A stretch of DNA of 64,000 bases from Candidatus Omnitrophota bacterium (GCA_029261035.1 JAJDCD010000008.1:34313-98312); one strand, 5' to 3'. Positions 5,099 through 46,200 are shown, counted from the first letter of the stretch. Notes: generated by a model not told the origin, from the letters alone. Program-made: numbers and translations.

Positions 5099-5119
5099 CG
5101 CGAATCTCCTTCAGTAGTA

Positions 5120-6085
5120 TTAAGCCAAGTATTTAAGAAGCCGAGATAAACAATCCTTCATCTCTTTTCTTGACGAAACAATATCAATTAAACCATGTTC
5201 TAGTAAAAATTCAGATGTTTGAAAATCTTTAGGCAATTTCTGTCTTATCGTTTGTTCAATAACTCTTGGACCCGCAAAACCAATCAACGCCTTAGGCTCA
5301 GCAACAATCAAGTCTCCCAAAGCCGCAAAACTAGCCATAACGCCCCCCATCGTGGGGTTTGTTAAAACGGAAATAAAAGATAACCCAGCCTTATCCAATT
5401 TAGATAAAGCAGCAGAAGTTTTAGCCATCTGCATCAAACTCAAAGCGCCTTCATACATCCTAGCTCCACCCCCGGAACCAGAAACAATAACTAAAGGCAG
5501 TTTTTCTTTAATAGCATATTCTATAATACGCGTTAATTTCTCACCAACTACAGAACCCATTGAGCCCATTATAAATCGTGAATCCGTAACACCAAAAGCT
5601 ATTTTTTTATTGTTTAATTTTCCATGCCCTACAATACAAGCTTCGTCTAAGCCTGTTATTTTTTGACTTTGTTTCAATTTTTCTGTGTAAGATTTACTTC
5701 CTTTAAACTGAAGAGGGTCTTTCGATCTTAGCTTTTCATACAGCTCTGTAAAGGAGCCCTTATCAATAATCTGAGCTAGACGGTCTTTAGCACCGATAAT
5801 AAAATGATAGTCGCATTTATCACAAACCTGCATATTCTCTTCTAATGTCTTATTAAAGAGAACGTTTCCACAATCGGGACACTTAGTCCATAAACCGGAA
5901 GGGAAACTTTTCTTTCTGGCAATATTCGCAGAAACATCTTGTTTGGGAGCTTGTAAGCTCTTTTTAATAGGCGTCTTTCTTTTCGACTTATTTGAAGATT
6001 TTTTAGGTGATTTAGGCATGATTTTCGTATTTTGTTCTAAAGTTAAATTTACAGGTTTTGACTGAGTAATTAAAGTGCTATTCAT
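5120..6085 (-). CDS. accD: acetyl-CoA carboxylase carboxyltransferase beta subunit with lysine-rich N-terminal extension
   Basis: Zinc ribbon CPDCGNVLFNKT...CDKCDYHF and carboxyltransferase core GSMGSVVGEKLTRIIEYA...VIVSGSGGARMYEGALSLMQMAK. Confidence 0.9.
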   Translation of the reverse strand: MNSTLITQSKPVNLTLEQNTKIMPKSPKKSSNKSKRKTPIKKSLQAPKQDVSANIARKKSFPSGLWTKCPDCGNVLFNKTLEENMQVCDKCDYHFIIGAKDRLAQIIDKGSFTELYEKLRSKDPLQFKGSKSYTEKLKQSQKITGLDEACIVGHGKLNNKKIAFGVTDSRFIMGSMGSVVGEKLTRIIEYAIKEKLPLVIVSGSGGGARMYEGALSLMQMAKTSAALSKLDKAGLSFISVLTNPTMGGVMASFAALGDLIVAEPKALIGFAGPRVIEQTIRQKLPKDFQTSEFLLEHGLIDIVSSRKEMKDCLSRLLKYLA

Positions 6086-28238: not shown

Positions 28239-31200
28239 TTACGCTGCTTGTGCAACAAGTCGTTCTGCTTCAATAGATAATCTTAAATTTTCTAGCAAAT
28301 CAAAAACAAGATGACTTCCCTCTAATCGAATACCCTTAACACCTAAAGTATCTTCAAACCACTCAGGATGAATCACAACACCATCGCTAGCAACTTTGGC
28401 TCTAGCTAAAACTAATTTAAATACAAAGGCAGCTAAACCTTCCCTGATTTCCCCATCCGCCTTTGAGTAACTCGCTGTCATATACTCTTCAGGTATTTTA
28501 GATTCCATCTCTCCCCATACGCCCTCAGTCATTATTCCAATTTTCAGACTATCAGAACGATCACTAAAAGTTTGTCTTCTAGCTTGTTTTTTAACAAAGC
28601 GAATATTAGTTTTTCCGTGAAGAACAGATCCTTTCCTCATCCATTCTGAAGCTTTAATCCTCTCATCATGATCTCTGGGGTTATATAGAATATATAACTG
28701 ATCTCTCTCTTTCATTTGCTGTATCCATTCTGGAAACGACTTCATGAGCCCTTCAAAAGAACTTAAATCTAAAATCACATCTACAACCTGATCCCCTATA
28801 AAAATATCTGAGTAATTCACCTTAATCTGATCCAAATCTCTTCTATCAACACTCCACATCAAAGTTGCTATCTCCATCGCACGAGTGAGAACCTCAGGCA
28901 TTTCCCGAGTAGATTGATATAACTGCCAAAAAGAACGTTTATACTCCTTACTTAGCTGAACTCCAAGAGCTGTTTCCAAATATTCAGCCAATAAAACTTC
29001 AGAAGAAAAATCTTCTTGCAGCAAGTGCGTTAACACAACATCCAATGAGAGAGTTTCACCTAAACTTCTGGCCAAGACTTCTCTATCAAGCCAAGGAGAT
29101 TCATCTTCTGGCACCACAAGTGTTTCAGAGGATTGACTCACTGCAAAAAATAGCTTGTTCAGTTGTTGAAACAAAACCTCCCAATCATCAGCACCATGTC
29201 TCTCAAAAACTTCTAATACCTCTTCAATTTTTCTAAAATCTTTATTCATTCCAATCTTTCCCAGAACTAACATCATTTTTCTTTTAGCTTCTTCAGAAAT
29301 ATCGTTTCTACTAAAGATTATCGTTAGAACCTCTTTTATTTGGGTCTCAATATTTTTTATTTGATTTTCATTAAACTCTAAAGGAATTTGGTATAAAAAG
29401 AAATAAGCTAAAAACAACCATTCTTTTGCTGTAGTGAACAAGTTTAAAAGATCCATACGGATGATATTTCCATTCAATCTTCCCTTACTAATACCGCTAC
29501 TTAAACTATTAAGAATATTTAAATAATTCCCTGGTAAGAATAAAAGAGCCCACTCTTTCTTAAAAAAATAATTATTTAACTCTGAATCGGATAATAGATA
29601 AAATTGGTTTAAAGCATACATCCAATTTTCTTCATTTAAACCTACAAATAATTCTATTAAATCAATATCCGCAAAGAGATTTTTTTCTGGGTTACTAATA
29701 GCCTCAGTAATAATCTTTTTAAATTCTAATGCTTCAAAATGAACAGGCGTTGATCGGGGCATTTTTCGAATCATTTCTAAGTAAATCATGATCCAACGTT
29801 CTATAAATTTTTCATCCATATTGGGATTTGCTTCTAAAAATGAAAAGAAAACATCCTTATAAACAGCCTGTGTCACAACGGGGTATTTCAGTTCAAACTC
29901 TTCAAATGAGAGTCCTAAACGTTCTGGTAAAATAGACGCTTCATAATCTTCTTCAAACCCTAAACTTTGACCTTGAATAGTTTCAAGATTGTTTTTGGTC
30001 AATTCAGCTGAAACTCCAATAACCCCGCCCAAACTAGTGGCATCCACAATTTCCCGACCCGATCCACTTAAGCTAGAACTTCCTCCTCTGGCTCCAGGAG
30101 AATAAACACCTTGTATAATATTGGATAAAACTTTCTTCATTGTTTCTGGCAATTTTGAAAGCTCGTTGTCTTTGAGTGAAAAGGAGAATTGAGACCCATA
30201 CACTTCTATCACATCCTCTGTTCCGGTCCCTAAACCTATACCAACATAATCCACAACAGAACCACCGACTCTTCCATTCTTCTTTCTTAACTCTTCCAAA
30301 AAGGCCATTACTTGATCTCTTGTACCCATACCATCTGTAATGACAAATACGTAGTGACGCTCTCCACCTACTTTTTGAATATCTTCCATTGATTTAAGAA
30401 TCGCGCTAAAGTCATCAGTGCCTCCATGAGCACCAATAGATCGGTATAAATCTTCTATTAAATATTCTTTTTCTCTTCGCGTTCCGTAAGACTGAGGCAC
30501 CGCATCAGCACCCTCTCTTAAGTCTTCTGGCTCTGTTTTTTGTCCCTTAAAACGCTTATGAAGGTGCGTTGAGCTACCAAAGCCTCGAACGGCAAAATCA
30601 ATACCAAGGTTTTGCAACGTTTCCATAAACACCACAGCTCCTTTAAGGGCGTTGTAACCCGCCATCCCTGCATGGGTGGGTTTATTGGCCTCAGAGTCTG
30701 CTGGAGTCCCTGACATACTGCCACTTTGGTCAATGAGCAGGGTGAATTTAATATCCTTCTTCTGTGGTAACACCTTTTGCTTATAGAACCTCATGTCCAC
30801 AAAGCCTCGAGCCATCGAATTCATTAACCGCCTAATATCAATGCGGCCTTTTTTCATTCCCGTAACTTCTTTAGGTCTTAAGGAGTTTTGAATCAAATCT
30901 CTTAAGTAGCCCGTTAAAGTCATAATAGTTCCTCCTAACCAACCCATCAGGTTGTCTCTTAGAGACCTAGGCTCGTTAATAGAAGCATCTTTCATAGCAT
31001 CTTGGTAATCTGTAGAATCTTCTTTAGTTCTATCTTTGGCATTTCCTGCAGCACCTTTTTTAATTTCATCTACTATCTTTGATTTATCTTTTTCTCCCAA
31101 AGCTTCCCAAATCTTTTTCCAATCCTTATCTGAAATTTTCTTTTTGCGCTTATCTTTAATTTTCCCTTCCACTGTCGCTCCCTCGCCTGAAGAATCTCCT

Positions 31201-34200
31201 GTAGAAGGTTGCTCAGGCATATCCCCTTCAATAATTAAATCTCCTTTAATTGTGATCTTTCCTTTGCTCGGTTTCCCTCCAGGAGGAGCTCCTGGCCCTA
31301 TATGAACATCTCCTTCGATAATAAGGTCTCCATCCCCAGACTCTCCTTCACCCTCTCCCTGCCCTTGCCCTTGACCTTGACCTTGACCCTGCCCTTGACC
31401 ACCCTTACCTTTATCTTTTTTCTGATTTTCCTGAGCATCTCGAACAGCCCATTTATAAACAACGGGCATAACAATGTCTTTGATCATCTCACCTTGTTCA
31501 CGAGCTAATTCTATTATTTTCACGTCCCCCTCTCTAAGTTCCGACTGAAAACGAGGAAGTCCTACATCGTCAAAGGTAACCGGAATCTTCGCGAATACAC
31601 TTCTCATTTGTGCTCGTTGATATTTACCTAGAATTTCATCTCTGTCTCCACCTTTATAGTGGTATCGATCCTTATCCCATGTCCCAAAAACTCCCGTAGC
31701 CAACAATTTCTCAACATCCTTTCTAAGGTCCGCATCCTTCTCACCAATAATTTCTAAAATTCTTGGGAACTTATCCTTAGAATCATCAAAATCTCCTCTT
31801 TTTGCTAACCACAACATTAGATTACTTAAGATGGATGAATAACTATGGTCTGTCTTAAATAGCTGTTCAACATCTTCCGTCCTAAACACAGCCTCATCAT
31901 TCATTCGTTTCAAAAAACGTGCGGCTCCTTTAAAACGTAATTTTGCCCAGTTCTCTATTCGACCATCTTCAATTATGTTGAATACGGTAGCTCCTAAAGA
32001 TGTATCTTTTAGAAATTCATAAAAAAGAGAAGAGTACCAAGTAGCATAGCGATGCATTGCTTCATGAATCGCTGTTCCTAGTACAGACTCTAAACTTTCC
32101 TCCATTAGAGCGCTTGCCGGAACAATCACCATGTTTTTACCTCTGTTAAATGCCCAATTCGCATCTTTTCCTGTTCTCACTTCTACATTCACTGTTCCTT
32201 TACTTACAGTTTCAAATGCTTGAACAAATATTTCAGCACGCTGTTCAGCACCCATCAACTTCCACCGACTGTCATCCGGTAAATCTTCTAATTCATCTGC
32301 ATTTTCTAATTCTTGGAAGGGGCGGTCACTCAAGACATCCATAGAAGCCATAAGCACCTCTTCTGGGTCCTTTAATGAACTCGATTCTGAATCTAATGAA
32401 GTCATAGAAGGCTGAATCATTTGAGGCTCTAATTCCGATCTCTGTTCAGGACTTTTAGGATCTGAAGGCTCTTCTAAAAGAACAACATCTTCTTGCTCAT
32501 CCAAATTAATTTCTTTGGACTGAACCAGTTTAAGTACACGTCCCACCAAAGACTGAATTCCTCCTAACATTATTTGATACATCTCATCCCTTCTTCGTTG
32601 ACTCCGAACCCAAACTTCTCTAAAACGACTCCTTAAAGCTGGAGACAACCCTACGCGCCCTGCATTCATCCCTGTACGACCTTCTGCAGGGTTCATTGTC
32701 CCAAACAATCTAAAATTAGGGTGGATATTTACATAAACACCTCCTTTTTCCAATATGCTCATCGTCCCACGATCAAAATATTCATTCAAAACTTCAATAA
32801 CACCTGCATCAGCCATGTTAATTTCTTCTAATACAAGAGCATACCCTCTTTCCATTGCTTGAATTAATACTCCTTTTTTAAATTCCATAGTCCCTGTGGA
32901 TTCATCTAAAACAAAACTCCCTATCAAACTTTCAATCGTAGCCGCTCCTAAGGATACGGACATATAAGGCCAATAAAGTTCACGAGCAATGTCCCCAATC
33001 ATTTCTGTTTTTCCACCACCCGAATGCCCTGTTAGGAGTACAGGCTTTGATTTATGAATCTCCACAGTCGAACCTTCACTATCTCTTACCTTTACAGTGC
33101 CTCCATCTCTAAAACCTTTTAATATTTGAGACCTCACATTACCCATAGATTTAATTTCCACCAATTTATCAATACGCTCTGCTTGAGAACGGAAATACTT
33201 GTCTATAACAGATTCTAAAATCAATTTATTCTCAGGAAGGTTTTGCAACATACCACCATAGAACTCTGAAATTATTTTTTTGTACCTTTCCTTCAAAGGA
33301 AGGTCACTATCCCTATCACGAACGGCTTCATCCATGACACGAGTCATAGAGCTGTCATCAATGGGGTTTAATCGGCCGCCTTCGTTTGAAACAAAAACCC
33401 CTTCCTGAATTAAAGCATTCACCTCAATATGGAAGGAATTTAACATATCATTTAAGTCTAATTTCTTTACCTTTACTCCATTTAACTCAATCCACTCCCC
33501 TAAATCATTTTGAGTTTGTCGAATTTTATAACCATCTATGTAAATATCTTCAAAAGCAACAACAGGCTTCAGATTACTAGTGACCGCTTTAGATGCTCTG
33601 CGAAAATCACTCATTTCAAGGGTTTTTGAACCCCTTTCAAAAAACAGTCTATTCCCTTCAATTAACTCTAAGCTGAAAGTTTGAAACCTTTCTAAAAAAG
33701 TCTTTTCATCCCCATCTCCACTAGACTCTTTTCGAAACATCAATCCAAAAGCTTGATTCGTTGAAAGAAAAAAGTCAGGGTTGACTGCTCTTAATTTCTC
33801 CTCCTGACTTTCAAGGTACCGAAATTTTAAATCTGGATCAACATCACTTTTTGAGTCATCCCATTCAATACTTCTTAGTAAATTCAAGGCCCCTTCTACT
33901 TCTAACGCAAAATTAGCTGCTTGTTTTTCAATAATTTCTTCAATTGATACTTCAGCTCTACCATCATCCGATTTCATTACTTCTTGAAAAGCATTATTAT
34001 TTTCTAAACTTTCATCGAAAGACTGAATTAAGAAACGCTCAAATAAAGCATTAAGTTTATTGATATTATTATTGCGGAACGGGTCATCTGAATTTGTTTG
34101 TGATAATAATCCATAATATTCTTGATATCCTGTCTTAAGAATTAAATCAAACAAAGACTCTTCTTCAGACCCTTCTTTAGAATATTGCAAAGCATCATGA

Positions 34201-37200
34201 ATAATTCTTTCTAAATTGCGAATAGAAAAACGGTATGATTGATCTGCATTAAAAGAGTCAAAGTACCCCTGCATACTCTTTTTATTCAACTCTATTTGAA
34301 ATTTCACAAACTCCCCTAATTGACGATATCGAATACCTTTTTTTGATAAATCATACTTTTTCATTAAAATTATGGTCATTTCTTCAACGCTCATGTCTCT
34401 AACGTGATGAATCTCAAAACGATTCATAAACGCTTCACTCATTCGATTTCGCCCCACATAATTAGACGGATTTCCACTCACAATAAGCTGAAACCCTTCA
34501 CCTGGATAAATCTTCTTACCTTGAAACTCCACATACCCTAATGTTAATAGCTGATAAAGCACTCCTATAGATTCTTCATTCGCTAAATTTACTTCATCTA
34601 ATAAAACAACATCTCCACGCTCGTACGCCTCCAAAAAAGCTCCTTTTTTAAAAATTAGCTCAATTCCAGTCAGCCCGTTAATAAGTAAAACAGAAAGGTC
34701 CAAAAGCTTTTTCTTAGCATTTAAATCAATTCCTCTAACCCCTGATCTCAGCAAATACTTTAAAATATACAACTCAATCAATTGCTCACTAGTGGTTTCT
34801 TTGGGTATCAAATCTCTTAAATGAAGCCTCATTTCATCTTCTGATATTTTAAGTTTTTTTAACGCCCTTTCTAAGCGGACATACTCTTTCTTCTCTAAGG
34901 CTTCCAGCAACACTTCCGTTGCTTTCCCTTCATCCATATCTATTTCTACAGGATGAAAACTACCGAACAAGTCATATTCATCCGTACGTCGGTTCATCTG
35001 AATTCTTGTCAGACGATTTCCTGACACATGAGCCACCAACTCAGCCATGGTCGATTTTCCACCAGCAGTTTCCCCCAACAACATGAGCGGATGATATTTT
35101 TTTCCATTAAATTTCGTTATAGTGACGCCGCTTCCGTGCTCCATCACATCCATTATTTGCGACATCAAAGCCTTACTTTCCTCTGTTAAAATAAATCCCC
35201 TTTCTTTTAAGACAACTTTTTCAAGACGGGCAACGACTTTGGAGCCACGAGAAACAACCCAAACATCACCTTCATCCTTCCATTCAAAAAAAGGAGAACC
35301 CAAATCTAAATCAGATGCAACATCCTTTTTAAAGACACTCCTATCGTCATCGTTGTTTAGCCTTAAATAATAGATTCTATTAACAGCATGTCTCAAGGCT
35401 TCGTCTTCAGAAACTCCATTTTGAATATCTCTAGAAATTACATCCACAATCCTGGAGACATCTCTTAAACTAGTAACATACCCTTCATTATTTTGAGTCC
35501 CTATCCTTCCTTCTTCCAAAGCTTTTTCAAATCCAGAGTAAATAGTGTAAATACGATTAACAATAGAGGAACTCACATTCGTTTGCCGATTGGAGAATTT
35601 TTTAAGAATAATATCTTGAACTTCTTTTTTAGATTTTTTATGAGAAACCCACACTTCATTAAATCGACTGCGAATAGCAGGCGACAAACCTACACGACCG
35701 CCACTAGCACTACTAATTCCCTGTTCCGGATTCATTGTTGCAAATAATCGGAAATTAGGATGTATCTTTACTTTTTCACCTGTCAAAGGATTTGTAAAAG
35801 TACCTTCATCAAAATATTCATTTAAAATTTCAATTAATCCAGACGTAGCCATATTCACTTCTTCAATAACAAAAATCGCACCCTCTTCCATTGCCTGAAT
35901 CAAAGCTCCAGGAACGTAATGCATTCTTTTAGTGTCTTCCTCCATTTCAAAGCCACCCACCAAACTTTCTAAATTAGCATTACCAAAAGAAATACTTCGG
36001 TACTTCCAACGCAAGCGGCGAGCCAAATCTCCAATCATTTCCGTCTTTCCACCTCCTGTTTGTCCCACGAGCATCACTGTAGACTTAGGGTCCATAAGTC
36101 CTTTAGCAATTGCATATTGAATTCGGTTCGTTTCTTTGCCTTCAGCAAGCTCTTCAATAATATCCGCCTCACTCGAGCCCTTTGGAAGATCATCATAAGA
36201 TCTTGTAGGAATAAATAGATCACCCATCCTTAACCCTTTGGGTGTATTTTCTTTCTGAGGAGATTCTGGCACTTCAAATTTAGGGAAATATTCTGCGGAA
36301 GTAAATAATACTTCAAGACGTTTAATATCTTCATCATCTCGACCTAAGATACTGCGGTAATTCATATAAGCTTCTCTTAGTAAAATCTGAGGCGAAGGAG
36401 GGGATGAATCGCTAGAAACCAATACCATCTGAGTATCTTTAACGATTTTCTTTATATTTCTTAATGTAAATTGATATGCTTTAGATGGATCCGAAGAATC
36501 CATATTAGAAAACTCCCCTTCCCGTATAGCTCTATTTACTTCCTTTTGAAATAAAGCTAAACGCTTAAAAGCACTTTCTAAACCCAAACTATATTGCTCC
36601 CATTCCCAGACGCTCGTGTTTTTAATTTCACTCGATATAATTTCCGTCATCTCTTCAGGTGTCATATTCGGAATATGATGAATTTCAAATCGGTTCATCA
36701 TAGCCTCTCCTAACTGATTTCTACCTGCATAGGTTGCTGGATTTGCAGTTGCAATAAATTTAAAACCCTTAGCCGGTCTGATTTTTTGAATTTTCTTAGT
36801 TTGCCTATCATAATACTCCACATAGCCCAAGGTTAATAATTGATACAAAACACCCAACACTTCAGGGCTAGCCAAATTGATCTCGTCTAAAACGACAACA
36901 TCTCCATTTTTGATAGACTTAAGCAAACGACCTTCTCTAAATTCAAGGTCTATATTCATAGACCCATTTTTTAAAATAAATGCGACATTCATAACCTTTC
37001 TTCTAGCAGCTTTTTTCTCTTGTGACTCTGTTCCAGATAAAGCATTTCCCAACCAACCTTTAAGCTCCTCCATCGTCTCCATATCAATTTCGTCTTTAGC
37101 CTGATACAAAGCTGTTTTAGATGAAGCTCTTCTAATTTGATCTACATCCATCTCCCCATGTTTCAATAGACTCATACTTTTTCTTAACTTCACCCAATCC

Positions 37201-40200
37201 TTGCGACTCATTGAGTTCATCAATATTCTATACGCTTCCTCAAAAGACAAGTCCACTTCTCTTGGCTCATAACTTCCAAAAAGATCCAATTCATCTATTC
37301 GCTCATTCATCTGAATTCGGGTATAACTCTGCCCCAAAAGATTGACAGCTGCATATTTCGCTAGAGAACTTTTACCTCCTGCAGTTTCTCCCATCAAAAG
37401 AGTTGGATTAAATTTATGAGCCTCAACGTCATTCGATGAAAGAGATAGTGTGGCTAAAAGACTCATTAAATTAGCTTTTGTTTGTGGACTTTCAACTAAT
37501 TGAGAATCTTTCACAATCACATTCAACCTTCTTTCAATCTCTTCCTCTGATAACGCAACATCGCTTTCTTCTATAATTTGTTGCCTCAAACTTTTGCTTA
37601 ATTGACTCAAATCAAATTGAGCAACTTTTACTCTTACTTTATTGTGAATTCCATAAACATTAAGAGCTCTATTCTCCCCACTCTCCACTACTTCATAATT
37701 CAACGAGTCTAAATTAACATTCTCTATACCTATGTTTGGGAATAAGGTTTCCAAGAGTTCTCCATCACTTTTTTCAAAAATACGGGACTGGTACACTCTT
37801 TTAATCGCTAAGGATAATGCCACATTCTCAGATTGGTTGAGCTCTTGAATCCCGTAGCTCATACCATAGATAATTCTTGTTAAATCTCTAATACTTGTAT
37901 AGTAAATATCAGATAAACGATTGCCGAAGAATCTTTTGTAATTTAAATAAAAATCAACAATACGTTCCACGGTTTTCTTTTCAATATTCTGAATCGCATT
38001 TTCACCCATGAGACCTTTTTGCTGAAACCTACCCTCAACAATTTCAATCAATTCTGAGCGAGTTTTTTCATGAGGAACCCAAACTTCTCTAAATCTATTT
38101 CTTAATGCCGGAGATAAGCTCACCCTTCCCGTATTCTCTCCAGAAACTCCTTCGATCGGATTCATTGTTGCCATCAACCTAAAATTATGATGGATATTAA
38201 CTCGCTCTCCTGTAAAAGGATTTGTAAAAGTCCCTTCATCAAAATACTCGTTTAAAATTTCTAATATGCCAGACTTAGCCATATTTAACTCTTCCAGAAC
38301 AAGTATATTCCCTTCTTCCATTGCTTGAATTAAGATCCCTGGACGATAAATAAATCGATGTTCCGCACGATCATATTCCATGGTTCCTATTAAGGTTTCT
38401 AAAGTAGCATCTCCCAAAGATACAGAGATATAATCCCAATTTAACTTATAAGCCAAATCGGCTATCATTTCACTTTTTCCACCTCCCGATTGCCCCACCA
38501 TTAAAACGGGCTCATTACGCCTAAGACCCTTTGCAATTTGGTACTGAATAGCCTTTGTAGATGACGTCTGGATCAAAGGTGGCACGACTCTTTCCGTTGG
38601 CTCTTCTGAATTAACCTGCGTAGAAATTCCTCCAATAACGAGTGATTCCGACTCTATATACTCGTAATCATCAAATTGAGTTAAGGAAGTCTCAATCATT
38701 TCATCAAAATCCTTAATCGTAAGGCCCAAATGAACCGAAAAAATAGTACGAATATTCTGAAAATCCGAATCTCCAGGAATTAGCCTCTGTCTTTTCCCTC
38801 CTTCAACTTCAGGATCTTCAATTTCTATTGTCTTACCCGAAAGATCTTCCATGCTATCTAAGTACCGTGGAGAACGAATTAAAATATTGGCATACTCACG
38901 ATAAGCAGCAGTAATCCATACCTGTTCATCAATGACAACTCCTTGCTCCTTTAGCTCTTTAACATCTTGATAAATTCTCAACAAATTTCTCATAGTAAAA
39001 ACATAATTAGCATCCCTACCCATCCTAGGAAAGGAACCACTTAGCAATTTGCTGTTAATTGTATTTTGTATAGCCGCTAAATATTTAATTAAATCTTGGT
39101 TGACTCCAAATTCTTCCTTTAAAACCTGGTCAGGATCTCTGCCAAGATAATCTCGACTCACTAAGCCTTTAATAATATTTGCCATCTCATAATCAGGTAT
39201 GGAGTCAATATTTAATATTTCAAAACGGTTCATAAATGCTTCACTCATTCTATTTCTACCTTCATAACTAGATGGGTTTGCTGTAGCCATAAGACGAGCT
39301 ATCTTACCAGCCTCACCTTCTATAACCTTTCCATTGTATTCAATATATCCTAAAGTTAACATTTGATACAAAACACCCAACATTTCTTCATTCGCCAAAT
39401 TAACTTCATCCAACAGAATCAAATCGCCCCTTCGATAAGCATCTAAAAATCTTCCTTCTTGATAAACAAGTCCTACTTCATTGTTTAATATATAAGCTAA
39501 TGATTTAATTTTTCTTATTTCATCCCAAGCTTTTGTTCCTTTTTTAATACTGTCTTCACCTTGTTTTAAGTAATGAGAGCTTTGTCCAGTATAAATTGAA
39601 AGTAATTTTTTTATTTTATTAACCACCCACTCATTTTGATCTTTTAAACTCAGAGTTGTGATTCGCTCTCTTTCTAAAGGACTGGATACAAACGCTTGAA
39701 TAAAATCACCTCTTTTGCCTATCTTCATTCGAACCAAAGCATCCTCTAATGCATTTAGGTTATTACTCTCTAAGGCTTCTCTAATTACTTTATCCGCATC
39801 CTGTAAAGAAATTTTTATTTCTCTAGGTTGAAACGAGCCAAACAAATCAAATTCATCCGTTCTCTGATTCACCTGAATTCGAGTAAAGCCCACATTTAAA
39901 ATATGAGAAACAATACTCGCCACGGTTGTCTTTCCCCCCGAAGTGACACCAAACTCCAAAACGGGATTAAACTTCTCATCTTCTCCACCGTCTAGACCTT
40001 GAAGAACATGGGCAATTTGTCTTTTTGTTGTTTCATTCAAAATCACTTGGGGAAAAGCCTCTGATATAGGAACGGATATCATTCCAGAGTAAAGTAAGCG
40101 CTTCTCTTTTGGGACAATTTCACGCACTTCAAAACGATACTGATCATTACCCTCATCATCTTGATCAACGATTCGCACTGTTTTTTGGTAGGGGCGCCTA

Positions 40201-43200
40201 CGTTCATATATTTTAATCCGTACTTCACCTTCAATGATTTCTTCTTCAAAATCATAGATAAAATCCAAAGGGTCGTCCTCCGTTATCAATCGATGCTTAA
40301 TCATCAAATTTCTCACCTTTTGCTTATCATCCAAATTTAAGCGATTATAATATCGACGTCGTACAGCAGCAGATACTGCTTCACTAATATTCCCATCATC
40401 TTTGTAATAACTTTGAACCATACTCATGGTTTTTTTCAAATCTCTAAGACTCACAAAGAGTGTTTCATTGTTCTCCAAACCTATATCACTTCTCTCTAAA
40501 GCTTTTTCATAATCCACATGAAAATTCACAATAGAAATAAAATAACGAAACGTATAAAGTAGATCTTTTAAATTCTTTATAGAATCCCCTACCATTCCTT
40601 TATAAAGATCCATCGCTTCTCTTAATAAAGCAGACGTTCCATCTTTTGCTGTTCTTGAAATTTGGGAAATGATTTGTAAAATCTCTGTTTCTTCAGCACT
40701 TCCTTCTTCAATTTTGAAAAAATTTCTAAGACCACTTAAAGGAAGTCGGACAAAGTCTTCGACACCCATATTGGCCAGAATTACACCTAAAGTTCTAAAG
40801 CGCTCAATATCATTATGCACCATCCCTTTATAATCTTTTAAAATACGCATGAGCATCGTCTTCAACTTAATATCACCTAGCTTCCCAAATGGCAAATCCA
40901 CTCCATACGTTGATTTTGATATATCAGCAATAGCAGTTAACAATTGAAAATCTGTAGCATCTGGAAACATTTTTGATTTTATATAACTTAAACTGTTTTC
41001 GTAACCCTCTGGCCCTCTATTCATTAACCAATCAAACTCTTCCTTAGATCCAAATAGATAGATATAAGTTAATACTTTAAACCCTTCCATCCCATGCTCG
41101 TCTAAAACTTTTCTGAATTTAGTTCTTAATTTTTCATCATTAGCCCCACTTTCCTCTTTACCAAACAAAAATAGAGATATGACTTTTTGAAGCTCATAAA
41201 ATACATGATACAATTCCTTCTGAGATGCTCCTGAAGAAGTTAGAATTGCCGCTTTGGTTACATCGCGTAAGGCTAAAATATCAGGTTGAGGCCCCCATTT
41301 AGCTTCTACATCATCCGCCCAACCTTTTAGCATGTTTGGTAGCGGCTGATTGACACTGGTACTTTCTAAGTAATCTAAAAGGTAAAATTTATCTTTAATA
41401 ACATAATTCACAAGCAACTCAACATAAGGCTTTTGATACAAAAGATCTAAGTCATGAACAATATGTTTTTCAACTCTACGCAGAGAGTCTAACTTTCCTA
41501 AAAACATTTGATTCTCTGTATTAGCTAATTTATTTATATGAACAATTTTACTTAATGCAAAATCAATAATTTTAGAATGATACTGACTCACGTACCCACT
41601 TTTTTCATACTCATCCATATAAGTTCGTCCTAATATCGTTTTTATTAGAGCTACCACAGCCTCTTCTTGAGAAGAAGACATCTCAGAAATCACTTCACCA
41701 CCTTGAAAAAGCTCTATTAATAGAAAAAGGTTATCCCCAGCACTAAGGATTAACTTAAAAAAATGATCTTCCTTAGAAAAAATAGACTCCTCTGCTTCTG
41801 CAGATTGATAAAAGAGAAGTGTTTTTGAGAAAATATCGGGAAATTCTGAGTGTTGTTTAGATAAAGATACAATAATGCTCAAGACTTCATCCTTTCGGCT
41901 AGCAGGTACCCTATCCTTCGTTATCTCATTCAGTAATAATAGAGCATCCACATTTTGAGCTAGAACCTCTCTCAATTCCCCATCCAAATCTTCCCAAGCA
42001 ATATAAAGTCGCCCGGCACTCGAAATCCCTAATTCATCATATTTTTCTTTAGCTCCTAAACTTTGAGCTTCAGCATCTGCAACTGAAGACAATGAGAGCC
42101 AATCATCTTCACTTCGGACAGAAACTGTAGCTACTTGATTCTCTACTTCTGAGACCCATATTTGAGAAAGTTGAAATAATTTTTCATTCACGCTCACTAA
42201 CCCTATCTTGTCAATTTCTTCCAAAACACCCAACACTTCCATTGATTTTTTACGTGCTAGGAAATAGGGGTAACGGCCACCCTCTTCTTCATCCGTCTCT
42301 ATAGATTTGATGTTTTCATTTGTTAACAAGAACAATCTTTCCAATCTAACCAAATTTATAGGCACTTTTGATTCTCTAGTCTCAATAACATATTTTTCAT
42401 ATGCTTGATACACACGTTCTAATAAATTCAACAATTCTTCTTGAGACACATTAAAATTAATCCCTCCAAGCAAATGAGAAAATAAGAATCTGAAGAACGA
42501 CCTATTTTGCTCTGATAATTTCAACATAACCTTAGGGTTATTCTCATTGAATCTCCTCTGTAAATTCAATAAATGATTCAAAACTACTTGAGAATCCCAC
42601 CCTATATCCATATTTTGATTTGCTAATTCTAGTAAAAATGATTGAGGAAGACTCAGGGGGTGAAACTCTTGATACACTTCCTTAATTTGTTCAGGAGTAT
42701 ATGTAATGGCCTTCAAACGACCTTGGGTGTAAAGTTCAAATAAATTCACCAAAAACTCTGATTTTAAACGTGAACCGAATATCAAAATAAGGAATTGGAT
42801 ATCCATATATCCATCCATTAAAGATTCATAATCACCAACACTTTCAATTTTTTCTAACAAATCCAAAACAAGAGGGCCGTTTTCTGCATAGTCATCACCA
42901 AGTAATTTTCGCAAGTCATCCCAAAAGGTATTTTCAACAACCTCATCCATATCAACAAAGTACTCTATCATTTTTTTAAAATCCAGAATTCCAGTTCCGA
43001 AGTTATTTATAAATACATCAAACACTTTCATTTCAAACAAAATATCGAATCGAGAATCCTCATCAACCAAACTTTCAAGTATGCGAACATCCTCTAAAAT
43101 CTTATAAAAATGCCGTATTACATCTGTGTTAATATTTTCCGACACTGGAATTTTTTTATTTCTGTTTAATTTAGATTTTAAAGATTTTATATATTTAAAA

Positions 43201-46200
43201 ATACCCGTTGCTCTTAGCAAAAGATCTCGCCAACGATCCAATTTTTCATCAGAACCCTTACCTGAAATATCATTACGCACTAAGATTTCTAATATCTCAA
43301 AAACAGAAGGCCCTTCCGAGGAAACGGTAGGCTCTAAAACCAATGCTTCCTCCAAAAAAACTAAGTCCTTATATTTATCACTAAACATATCCCAAGGCAT
43401 TCCAAGAGTTTCCTCTAGCCCTGACCTATCATAAGAATCATTCCCACCTAAACTTTTAGCTTCAATCAGAACAGGAGCCCGAGATAACCAATCTCCATCT
43501 TTAGCTTTTGGTTCTTCCTCAAGACTCTCTTTCTGCATGTTTAAATCATCTTCCCACTCTCTATCTAAATTCAGCAATAATTGATAAACATCATCAACAG
43601 GAATATGATCTAGCCGTTCCAGAACTTCGATCAACTCAGGCCCCTTTAAGGTATCAACAAAATAAGGGATTTCGGTAAGTTCCAATGTTGTTGTATTGAC
43701 ATAGCCCTTTTCCTCCATCATTCCTAGAAGCTTTGGATAAAACACATTCAAAAAAACAAGCGAGTCTATTTTTTTCAACAATTCCATAACGTTGTTAAGA
43801 CGATCTACAATAGAGGAGAGCTCAGCTTGATTCATATTAGGATCTAATCCTTCTATTAATTTTAAAATAATTCGACCATTCCCCGTACTCACCCCTACAT
43901 TTCTCAAAAAATGCAAAAGGTGCCCCTCCGTTAAAAAAGAAGGATTTACTCTCCCTTCAATAACCGAATCCAAAAATCCAATAATTAAACTATGATCATC
44001 TTCAGTCAATGCTATTTCAATATCAAAAATTTGTTCTAAATATCTATCAACACCACTAATAACTCCTTTCTCTTTCAAGAGGAGTAATCGAAATAAAATT
44101 TTATTAGCTAAAAATATATGAGGACCATACAACTGATTAAATCGAATAAAGTCTTCTTTTGAATACTCCGATCGATCAATTTGATTGTTCTTAAGGAGCT
44201 CCCCCAACTCTCTGAGTGCCTTAAAAACAGATATTTGTATGTGCTTTTTTCCTAACGGGGTCTGTTTTTCTAACATGTTTTTGATTAAAGGAAAGTCTAG
44301 AACAAATGGATCAATTAATTCTTTTTCCACCAAATTCAATAAAAGATCTATTTCTTTTGTAACTAAATACACCCCCCCTGGTTCCATTTTTTGAAGGAGA
44401 TAAACAAAAAGGCTAAGATTAAAATATCTTTCTCCATCAACCTTTTTTAATTTCTGCAGCAATAGAGTGAAACGCTCTAAAAACTCATCTTCGTGCCCCT
44501 CATAAAGCTGCCTTCCGATAAGCCTTCCTATTAAAATTAAATCATCTTTTAGTTTCATGAATTCAGCCCCAGATCTTTCTTGCCCCTCTTCATCAAGAAG
44601 ACCTAAAACTGCATCTAAAAACATGCTGTACTCTTCTCCAAATACAAAAGAAAAGAAATAACGAAATTCTGCCGGCAAATCTTCCCATTCCCAACCCAGA
44701 CTCTCTTTCAATGAAGAATTATCATAAATTTCTCTCCCCCCTAAACTTTTAGCTGAAATTAAAGCTTTTCCTCTCTCTAACCATTCCCCTTCTTCACTAA
44801 TTTCTTCACTTCTCCCTCCTGCCCCTTTCTGAATTTCAACGCGCCATACTTTACGTAGGTTTTCTATTTTTTCTATAGCAGCATCCTCTCCCACTTCACT
44901 TGCAGATTCTAATATTTCTAAAACCGTTTCTATATGATAGTTATTTAAATAATAACTTTGTAACTCTTTATCCTCTACAAGAAAGCCTTCCATGTATTCA
45001 AATAACAAGCTGTAGTAAAATTCATCATCCAAAACACGCTCAATCCGCATCAACAACTCTTCAACTTCATTTCCATCCATAGTTGGAGAAATTCCCGAAA
45101 TCAATAATAGCCCCAACTTTCCATTTCCACTCATAACTCCCAAATCTTTGTACAACTCAACAATTCTCCAATTATGAATTAAATAAGTATGAGAGACTCC
45201 GTCCAAGACTCTTTTCAACAGATTTGCTAAATCAAGATAACTCCCACCATTTAGAGCCGAAAGGTTCGGTGGGAAAAACTGTTTAGCAGCATCTTTATAG
45301 CTCTTAACTTTTTCTTGAAACTGCAATTGAATTAAATGAACTATAATTTTAAAAAAGTTTTGGGCTCTCATGTTGCTTTGAGACAGTAAAGCAACCAAAT
45401 ACTCATCCTTTAAAACCCGTCGCACCTCTTCATTTTCCTTTGCCATCACACCCAAAATCTCCAGAGAATCAAAGCCTATATCTTCATTTTCATCCCTTTC
45501 ATTAACAATCAAAGCTTTGATTAGTTCAGGGTTCAATACGGATGCATCTAGTTTGCCATTACGCACATCCAGAATAAGTCGATTAATACGAGATAAACTT
45601 ACGTACGTATTAGTTTCACTCATCATAAAGAAAAAGAAATCAGAATTAAATTTTTGAGCAATGTTCTCATCTTTTAAGGAGTCTAATAAGGTTAAAGTTT
45701 CTGAAATCACCTCAGCAATGTGATTATGCCTAGACATCCCATTCTTGAAGCCAAGATCATTTAAAATGATAATATCTTTCCATTTCATTAATTCTTTTTT
45801 ATATCCCTCTACTGAGGATTCACCAACAAAATTAATTACCGCATCAAACAACCTTAACATTGAACTTTGAATCACCCGAACACTAAAACCATATTGCATT
45901 TCCTCATCGAGATCTTCCCACTTTAACCCCGTTCTCTCTTCAATCCCTGAAGCTTCAAAAAACTCTTTAGCTTCTACAAGACCTAAGCTTTTAGCTGTTG
46001 CATTAGTATTCACTTCAATTTTTTCGAGTTCCCCCTTCATCTTTACGACATCTGGCCAATGAACAATCTCTCTCACCATCCCATTCATCTCAGCAGGAGA
46101 GATCGTTCCCTGTGAAGCCATTCTACGAATCAACGATAATCCCCATTCAACAAGAGCTGCTTTCCCCTGCACACCATCCAAAAACCGAGCTTCAGCTTCA

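Follow-up and report, generated by a model that had tools for sequence, protein, structure and literature searches.

The present work concerns a stretch of 64,000 nucleotides (nt) from a Candidatus Omnitrophota bacterium (GCA_029261035.1 JAJDCD010000008.1:34313-98312), referred to here as the window, and specifically an array of six AAA+ modules encoded on its minus strand. The whole array lies within a single unbroken open reading frame (ORF) of 6467 amino acids (aa) at 28239-47642. Based upon its module composition and its relatives, we consider it probable that this array is the motor of a giant midasin-like AAA+ protein of the Omnitrophota, in which a two-module unit was tripled to yield a ring of the form (AB)3. 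A preliminary description of the same DNA had already proposed an A-B-A-B-A-B array with regularly spaced Walker A sites and its origin through triplication of such a unit, and both proposals were upheld by the comparisons reported here.

The six-module array

Six GxxxxGK[ST] sites are found at aa 2565, 3050, 3418, 3860, 4190, and 4872, which correspond to nt 39950 down to 33006 and are separated by 485, 368, 442, 330, and 682 aa. The Pfam family AAA_5 (PF07728) matches in 8 stretches with an E-value of 3e-111 and a score of 367.9 bits against a gathering cutoff of 22, which places the protein in the helix-2-insert clade of AAA+ proteins. In the AF2 secondary structure of the first two modules, paired strands occur where the helix-2 (H2) and pre-sensor-1 hairpins are expected, as judged from a model with a predicted local distance difference test (pLDDT) score of only 64.6. 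The parts of the array are as follows, where lid denotes the AAA+ small domain and HMM a hidden Markov model.

28239..47642, minus strand: giant ORF, with a signal-like N-terminus, about 2300 aa of helical repeat modules, the AAA+ array, an HExxH domain, a VWA domain bearing a metal ion-dependent adhesion site (MIDAS), and a C-terminal region
40284..40532, minus strand: lid0 (aa 2371-2453), a B-type lid domain with a sensor-2-like VSLRD, matching B-module HMM positions 204-280 (independent E-value 1.3e-9)
40077..40262, minus strand: beta-strand linker from lid0 to module 1 (aa 2461-2522), with five strands in the AF2 model (model residues 117-178), also judged from sequence
38586..40040, minus strand: module 1 (M1), A-type (aa 2535-3019), with GVTSGGKT, Walker B LILLDEVN, sensor 1 ATANP, Arg in NRF, and sensor 2 FTMRN
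37482..38585, minus strand: module 2 (M2), B-type (aa 3020-3387), with GQSGGGKS, ILVLEELN (an EE Walker B), ATMNP, RNRF, lid TSIRD, and a short H2 beta-hairpin
36156..37481, minus strand: module 3 (M3), A-type (aa 3388-3829), with GETAGGKS, VVVLDEIN, and an H2 insert at aa 3463-3563
35166..36155, minus strand: module 4 (M4), B-type (aa 3830-4159), with GQTGGGKT, IFVIEEVN, and lid TSLRD
33120..35165, minus strand: module 5 (M5), A-type (aa 4160-4841), with GETAGGKS, VVLLDEVN, and an H2 insert at aa 4234-4326
32502..33119, minus strand: module 6 (M6), B-type, large domain only (aa 4842-5047), with GHSGGGKT, ALVLEEIN, and RSRF, and no lid of its own

The two module types are readily told apart, with A modules carrying a helical H2 insert of about 100 aa together with a DE Walker B, and B modules carrying short hairpins together with an EE Walker B. 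In M1, the insert spans 114 aa (aa 2609-2722, nt 39477-39818). An AF2 model of aa 2345-3390 (the same model with pLDDT 64.6) depicts M1 as an AAA+ fold with an all-helical helix-2 insert of about 110 aa, M2 with short hairpins only, and lid0 as a helical bundle; the structures most similar to this lid0-M1-M2 model are the rings of Rea1 and Mdn1 and the motors of dynein, with E-values of about 1e-15. At the two ends of the array, lid0 precedes M1 by about 110 aa and shares 30-34% identity with the M4 lid, while M6 matches just positions 21-188 of the 359-position B HMM, which is the large-domain part. Beta elements shorter than the linker following lid0 come after the lids of M2 and M4. A further 268 aa separate the M5 lid from M6 (aa 4574-4841, 33120-33923, minus strand), an extension that is much shorter or absent in the related proteins P0002, P0027, and P0029, whereas the P0174 family instead has a spacer of about 580 aa between M4 and M5. 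As the large insertions fall between M5 and M6 here and between M4 and M5 in the P0174 family, the ring apparently tolerates sizeable insertions at unit junctions.

The preliminary description had placed the array at 32300-40150, an interval that covers all six modules (M6 ends at about nt 32502) but misses lid0 and part of the beta-linker upstream of 40150. The motifs quoted there are likewise present, albeit with small deviations, namely GVTSGGKT and RIQVNQ in M1 and, in M6, GHSGGGKT, a segment ending in DIA, and GTMSIL in place of GTFTNP. The same motifs had been taken to predict which modules are catalytic, an expectation that did not hold. The Walker A Lys, an acidic pair at Walker B, the sensor-1 Asn, and the Arg finger are retained in every one of the six modules, and in the six family members compared no module has lost any of the catalytic motifs. 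Walker B is a canonical hhhhDE in A modules and an unusual but invariant hhhhEE in B modules, the Arg finger reads NRF in A and R[NS]RF in B, and sensor 2 reads FTxRN in A and TSxRD in B. Since both types possess full motifs, the motifs single out no catalytic class, and neither type looks degenerate. For M6, sensor 2 is presumably contributed by lid0. B modules are more conserved overall than A modules and, in P0027, AKS replaces GKS in m1 and m3; there are weak hints that B sites may be under tighter constraint than A sites.

Probable origin of the array from a two-module unit

All-against-all BLASTP of the six extracted modules yields a clean A/B alternation, and the pattern that had been named beforehand as evidence against it, with six equally distant modules, was not seen. 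Among A modules, M1 and M3 are 32% identical over 395 aa (E 2e-57), M1 and M5 36% (E 5e-62), and M3 and M5 36% (E 2e-70). The B modules are closer still, at 44% over 340 aa for M2 and M4 (E 1e-84), 55% for M2 and M6 (E 3e-60), and 50% for M4 and M6 (E 2e-59), whereas all A-versus-B pairs reach just 23-31% over 90-250 aa (E 1e-5 to 1e-10). Such an alternation goes well beyond what chance would produce, and it is mirrored in neighbour-joining (NJ) trees of the modules, another check suggested at the outset, which recover the A clade with 100% bootstrap and the B clade with 99.5-100%. Whole A-B units are 39-43% identical across 600-700 aligned residues, and at the DNA level three-copy repeats lie 2.3-3.0 kb apart with 65-78% nucleotide identity. 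The copies are old and the array is therefore not an assembly artefact.

The boundaries of the repeated unit can be read from the two ends of the array. In AAA+ rings, each small domain packs against the large domain of the module that follows. As lid0 precedes M1 and no lid follows M6, the unit boundaries would fall at B-lid, A, B-large rather than at whole modules, and given the packing of small upon next large domains, a unit composed of B-lid, A-large, A-lid, and B-large would equal two AAA+ rigid bodies. This resets the boundaries of the unit, the triplication of which is well supported. Presumably, an ancestral unit of this composition was tripled in tandem, such that the joined copies restored complete B modules inside the array and left one B module split over its two ends. 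No other single observation, in our view, argues as strongly for a tripled two-module unit as this split B module. The layout is not peculiar to the window protein, since lid0-A-B-A-B-A-B (large domain only) recurs in every relative covering those regions (P0001, P0003, P0004, P0027-P0030, P0174/P0031, and P0176/P0035). The lid0 element is present in P0001, P0003, P0004, P0029, P0030, P0174, P0031, P0176, and P0035, and a lid-less M6 is also found in P0001, P0002, and P0027-P0029.

The relatives further constrain when the triplication occurred. Within the family of the window protein (the window protein, P0001, and P0029), modules group by position with bootstrap values of 100% (m1), 99% (m2), 100% (m3), 96% (m5), and 100% (m6), and with 47% for m4, while each module of the window protein finds its best match in the module of the same number in P0001 and P0002. 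All module copies of this family are monophyletic relative to the P0174 family, with 100% support for both A and B. From the family monophyly and the positional clades, it follows that the triplication probably postdates the split from the P0174 family and predates the divergence of the sampled family members. Judging from the same sequences, gene conversion does not appear to have blurred the copies since the triplication. A deep grouping of the bacterial A and B classes, those of P0176 and P0148, and eukaryotic AAA1-6 was attempted and rejected, every cross-family NJ bootstrap being below 60%.

Flanking domains, relatives, and genomic setting

Downstream of the ring, the polypeptide continues through two linkers and two further domains, as listed here.

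32313..32501, minus strand: acidic Ser/Pro-rich linker after the ring (aa 5048-5110), from sequence
31443..32312, minus strand: HExxH domain (aa ~5111-5400), a putative zincin-like metallopeptidase, with HEAMH at aa 5193 followed by NIIEDGRIENW
30963..31442, minus strand: low-complexity Gly/Gln/Glu/Lys-rich linker (aa ~5401-5560) including (GQ)n and (GE)n, from sequence
30078..30962, minus strand: VWA domain (aa ~5561-5855) with the MIDAS motif DQSGS (aa 5638), from the family profile against the PDB, with a weak match to Pfam VWA_CoxE (1e-4)

The best PDB match of the VWA family profile is the midasin MIDAS domain (6or5 residues 4444-4713, E 4e-18), followed by CobT (6e-10), and the MIDAS domains of Mdn1 and Rea1 are its top matches overall (E 4e-18 to 5e-17). 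The DxSxS motif is kept in relatives. The HExxH domain is found in all bacterial multi-AAA_5 families examined, and its W, H, E, H, and D are invariant in ten sequences from several bacterial families, although it gave no match in Pfam with single sequences or in the PDB with a profile. Its pattern consists of HExxHR followed about 25 aa later by FNxxEDxR[IV][EN]NW, a gluzincin-like spacing. An AF2 model of aa 5105-5900 was unusable (pLDDT 39.3). The linker ahead of the VWA domain contains a perfect (GQ)9(GE)3 run (aa ~5413-5435, ~31340-31410, minus strand), at the place of which relatives have Gly/Lys/Glu/Pro-rich tracts.

The two ends of the giant protein, 2500 aa at the N-terminus and 570 aa at the C-terminus, matched no Pfam or NCBIfam family and gave no BLAST self-repeat at 1e-3. 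A recurrent motif is nevertheless evident, W-L-x-[RS]-x(3-8)-A-[KQRT]-S-L-G-[GAE], followed about 20 aa on by W-E-D-L or W-D-M. Four copies (aa 549, 975, 1394, and 1858; ~45998, 44720, 43463, and 42071, minus strand) mark helical repeat modules of about 430 aa across the N-terminal 2300 aa, and two more follow the VWA domain (aa 5867 and ~6165; ~30044 and 29150, minus strand). The motif may be likened to a double-glycine processing site. The helical repeats at aa 849-1908 match aa 4180-5128 of P0027, an Omnitrophota relative in which they lie C-terminal of the ring rather than N-terminal as here, and it therefore seems that the repeat modules have been reshuffled around the motor. The extreme N-terminus (aa 1-31, 47550-47642, minus strand), MIMKKTNRLISTFVLFFFLCSQGTLLPEGFA, resembles a Sec signal peptide or signal anchor, and the same signal-like start is found in full-length relatives from other families (P0174, P0031, P0176, and P0148).

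The window has a GC content of 35%, and nearly all of its genes, as well as almost all ORFs of at least 100 aa, are on the minus strand. Across the whole window (1-64000), the GC skew of the plus strand is uniformly and strongly negative (cumulative -7.6), with no turning point. The flanking genes are of bacterial housekeeping type and encode DAHP synthase, an RNase T-like exonuclease, inositol monophosphatase, NAD synthase, alanine dehydrogenase, and MGMT. For one neighbouring gene, every named homolog comes from Candidatus Omnitrophota, which identifies the host as a member of this phylum. The Omnitrophota are a phylum noted for giant genes (bioRxiv 10.1101/2023.11.21.568195).

When examining the distribution of the array, it is evident that bacterial relatives are scarce. 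An exhaustive search of 1.84 billion representative proteins with M3+M4 as the query returned 538 proteins at E<1e-30. Nearly all of these look like eukaryotic midasins, the close bacterial relatives (42-49% identity) numbering only a handful and the remoter multi-module proteins about a dozen. Among 185,579 species genomes, 17 loci were found in 16 metagenome-assembled genomes (MAGs), one MAG containing two. Nine of these loci are labelled Omnitrophota and five 'uncultured bacterium', the rest being from 'Candidatus Taenariivivens baikalensis', Candidatus Theseobacter (Auribacterota), and one 'Chlamydiae' MAG. The named cluster members are Omnitrophota, while partial, remoter relatives derive from Elusimicrobiota and Spirochaetia; in the databases, the relatives are labelled 'AAA family ATPase' or 'MoxR-like ATPase'. 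Members of the family are rare and almost confined to the Omnitrophota and other bacteria of the PVC group. In the full-text literature searched, no midasin-like protein of bacteria or prokaryotes was described.

Several of the remoter families (P0174/P0031, P0176/P0035, P0148, and P0042) are built like the window protein, in that they have a signal-like start and lid0, their modules alternate between two types with no lid on the last one, and both HExxH and MIDAS domains are present. They differ in being just 25-35% identical to it and in having spacers between units, and in P0176 both Walker B types are DE, unlike those of the window protein. P0148 (4471 aa) consists of three units of about 1150 aa, each comprising two AAA modules and a spacer of about 550 aa, which are 55-70% identical to one another, whereas P0042 (7137 aa) contains two units, separated by about 2600 aa, with 48% identity between them. 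By their sequences, both would be precedents for unit duplication, with the triplication in P0148 apparently much more recent, and the triplications appear to be independent in each family. Single-unit ancestors predating triplication were sought in P0057, P0036, and P0068 and rejected; these are partial proteins filling their contigs, and the number of units per protein cannot be asserted. On the contig of P0001 (L018 11562-19601), a second ORF, of 4362 aa and in the same orientation, overlaps the end of the P0001 gene, and the two are probably one larger gene split by a frameshift or sequencing error.

Comparison with midasin and other AAA+ machines

The best PDB match of the AAA array is midasin (Rea1/Mdn1), the AAA+ ATPase that acts in pre-60S ribosome maturation in eukaryotes, at an E-value of 6e-88 as opposed to 3e-10 for CobS. 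Like midasin, the bacterial protein contains six tandem AAA_5 modules in one chain and a C-terminal MIDAS (VWA) domain with DxSxS, and in both proteins modules with a helical H2 insert alternate with insert-free modules, while the last module lacks its small domain and an N-terminal element takes its place. In Rea1, helical H2 extensions occur in AAA2, AAA4, and AAA6, and AAA6 has no small domain, its position being taken by the N-terminal domain (PMC6286127). By analogy, this last arrangement would be a parallel to the lid-less M6 and lid0. The preliminary description had held that the divergence of the bacterial modules differs from that of midasin modules, which proved not to be so, as eukaryotic midasin also alternates (AAA1/3/5 versus AAA2/4/6), only in the opposite phase. 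Within eukaryotic midasin, BLAST scores are 93, 72, and 124 bits for odd pairs and 102, 76, and 70 bits for even pairs, against approximately 38-83 bits for mixed pairs, and hhalign scores are 358 for e2-e4, 273 for e1-e3, and 290 for e3-e5, against a cross-class mean of about 195.

The opposite phase is apparent from the gaps between Walker A and Walker B, which measure 168/55/156/54/147/54 aa in the bacterial array and 58/164/55/117/58/145 aa in 108 midasins. The bacterial order is long-short, with the insert-bearing module first, whereas that of midasin is short-long, and the chain break consequently differs as well, falling in a short-type module in the bacterial array and in an insert-bearing module in midasin. 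The bacterial protein has neither the helical linker of about 1700 aa nor the D/E-rich region of midasin, and the distance from ring to MIDAS domain is about 590 aa compared with about 2400 aa. Conversely, it has an HExxH domain, N-terminal repeats of about 2300 aa, a signal-like N-terminus, an EE Walker B in its B modules, and a bacterial host. Positional orthology with AAA1-AAA6 is not observed, the bacterial A and B copies each forming an exclusive clade. A mapping of bacterial A modules to eukaryotic even modules and of B to odd was seen in two midasins (B-A-B-A-B-A) and was rejected after 108 midasins, scored with full-module and core-only HMMs, gave no consistent pattern. It would seem that only the position of the insert and the alternation as such are shared with midasin modules, and that the protein is midasin-like in its architecture while departing from midasin in two respects, the linker and module orthology.

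Several alternatives to triplication of a bacterial unit were considered. The array could be orthologous to eukaryotic midasin, either through a six-module common ancestor or through a gene acquired from a eukaryote, in which case A and B would simply be the odd/even pattern of midasin. In favour of this, no other PDB entry comes close to midasin as a match to either the array or the MIDAS domain, and midasin too alternates insert-bearing with insert-free modules and ends in a module without a lid (PMC6286127). Despite this, the nearest relatives of the A copies are the other A copies, and the same holds for the B copies (100% bootstrap); distances are 0.7-0.8 within each set and no less than 1.3 to the eukaryotic modules. 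When these distances are taken together with the inconsistent mapping, the opposite phase, the absence of the ~1700-aa linker, and the presence of the HExxH domain, orthology seems quite improbable. It is similarly improbable, in our estimation, that the alternation arose from gene conversion between alternate modules or from convergence under an (AB)3 constraint. The copies in P0174 and P0031 are star-like, without positional orthology between both proteins, and homogenisation or re-duplication could yield such a pattern. Within the family of the window protein, however, the strong positional clades (m4 alone being weak) at about 45% overall identity argue that no conversion has occurred since divergence. 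In addition, the copies are merely 32-55% identical, and their similarity is collinear over whole units, including the split B module at the ends.

Alternatively, the A-B pairs might not form a single intramolecular ring at all and instead function as separate dimers or in intermolecular assemblies, making the protein a scaffold of MoxR-like ATPases. The intact A-B pairs of P0174, P0033, P0042, and P0148, which are parted by spacers of 600-2400 aa, as well as the 268-aa extension of M5 in the window protein, would suit such an arrangement. We nonetheless judge it unlikely, given that exactly six modules recur in several families, that a lid0 combined with a lid-less M6 makes sense only for a closed ring, and that the contiguous lid0-M1-M2 model superposes on arcs of the Rea1 and dynein rings.

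Provided that the array is a tripled (AB)3 motor, as we favour, several suggestions can be made regarding its functionality, with moderate confidence for the ring architecture and low confidence for the function, which is drawn from sequence. The chain would fold into a pseudo-hexameric (AB)3 ring that is closed by lid0, which would supply its sensor-2 Arg to the ATP site of M6. All six sites could bind and probably hydrolyse ATP, and the three helical H2 inserts would protrude from alternate modules on one face of the ring. The flexible tether of acidic and low-complexity segments may let the MIDAS domain grip an acidic residue of a client and offer that client to the ring, as in MoxR-VWA systems and midasin, whereupon ATP turnover would move the ring to pull on, remodel, or extract the client. 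The HExxH domain could possibly cleave the client, by analogy with MoxR-VWA-peptidase systems (PMC3495828, PMC7159879).

A number of observations weigh against this interpretation. Ring closure by lid0 is deduced from domain order, and the partial model has a pLDDT of just 64.6. The Sec-like N-terminus looks like a poor fit for an ATP-dependent machine, an exported ATP-driven ring being a paradox. The neighbouring housekeeping genes are unrelated to the giant ORF and give no hint of a partner gene. To our knowledge, no characterised precedent can be cited for the EE Walker B of the B modules. Furthermore, the trees are NJ trees of approximately 165-370 columns with weakly supported deep branches, and the groupings that would order the two duplications draw low support (m1+m3 62%, m2+m4 35%). 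The lid identities, by which lid0 is nearer to the lid of M4, disagree with the weak m1+m3 signal.

Among other known systems, the pairs of MoxR or chelatase ATPases with VWA proteins (RavA-ViaA, NorQ-NorD, CbbQ, CobS-CobT, and BchI-BchD) similarly combine an AAA_5/MoxR-clade ATPase with a VWA/MIDAS protein, and BchD resembles the window protein in having an acidic linker ahead of its VWA domain. CobS, NorQ, and CbbQ are among the PDB matches of the AAA array, CobT and NorD among those of the VWA profile, and GvpN, CobS, and BchD/BchI among the NCBIfam matches. These ATPases are single-module homo-hexamers with the VWA domain on a separate chain, whereas the window protein fuses six modules and a VWA domain in one ORF, and the similarity to them reaches E-values of only 1e-6 to 1e-10, as against 1e-85 for midasin. 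Dynein motors also possess a six-AAA+ ring in a single chain, belong to the same helix-2-insert clade, and are among the top structural matches. In contrast to the window protein, dynein lacks both a VWA domain and A/B alternation and has a stalk with a microtubule-binding domain, and sequence similarity to it is much lower.

The chain of six AAA modules is said to have arisen from bacterial MoxR ATPases with one module apiece, early in eukaryotic evolution (PMC3495828), and dynein and midasin are treated as independent fusions, with dynein regarded as an AAA fusion independent even of midasin (PMC5100056). The bacterial family offers a solution similar to that of dynein and midasin: its six modules are of alternating types, the terminal module is split, and a midasin-like MIDAS domain is fused to the chain. 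It is conceivable, and we propose this tentatively, that the PVC group, mainly the Omnitrophota, harbours a lineage of single-chain, six-module AAA_5 rings already joined to a midasin-type MIDAS domain, in which case the architecture would not be a eukaryotic invention. It would reflect either a bacterial stock that predated or accompanied eukaryogenesis and gave rise to midasin, or repeated tandem triplication of a domain-swapped two-module unit, with the register of the chain break differing between events. The split B module would also provide a concrete picture of ring origin, in which a unit of two rigid bodies was copied three times. Furthermore, such proteins may serve as a smaller prokaryotic system for studying the division of labour in (AB)3 rings, the role of the H2-alpha insert, and the N-terminal domain of midasin as a possible relic lid. 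A probable mechanochemical core is also assigned to one unexplained giant protein of the Omnitrophota.

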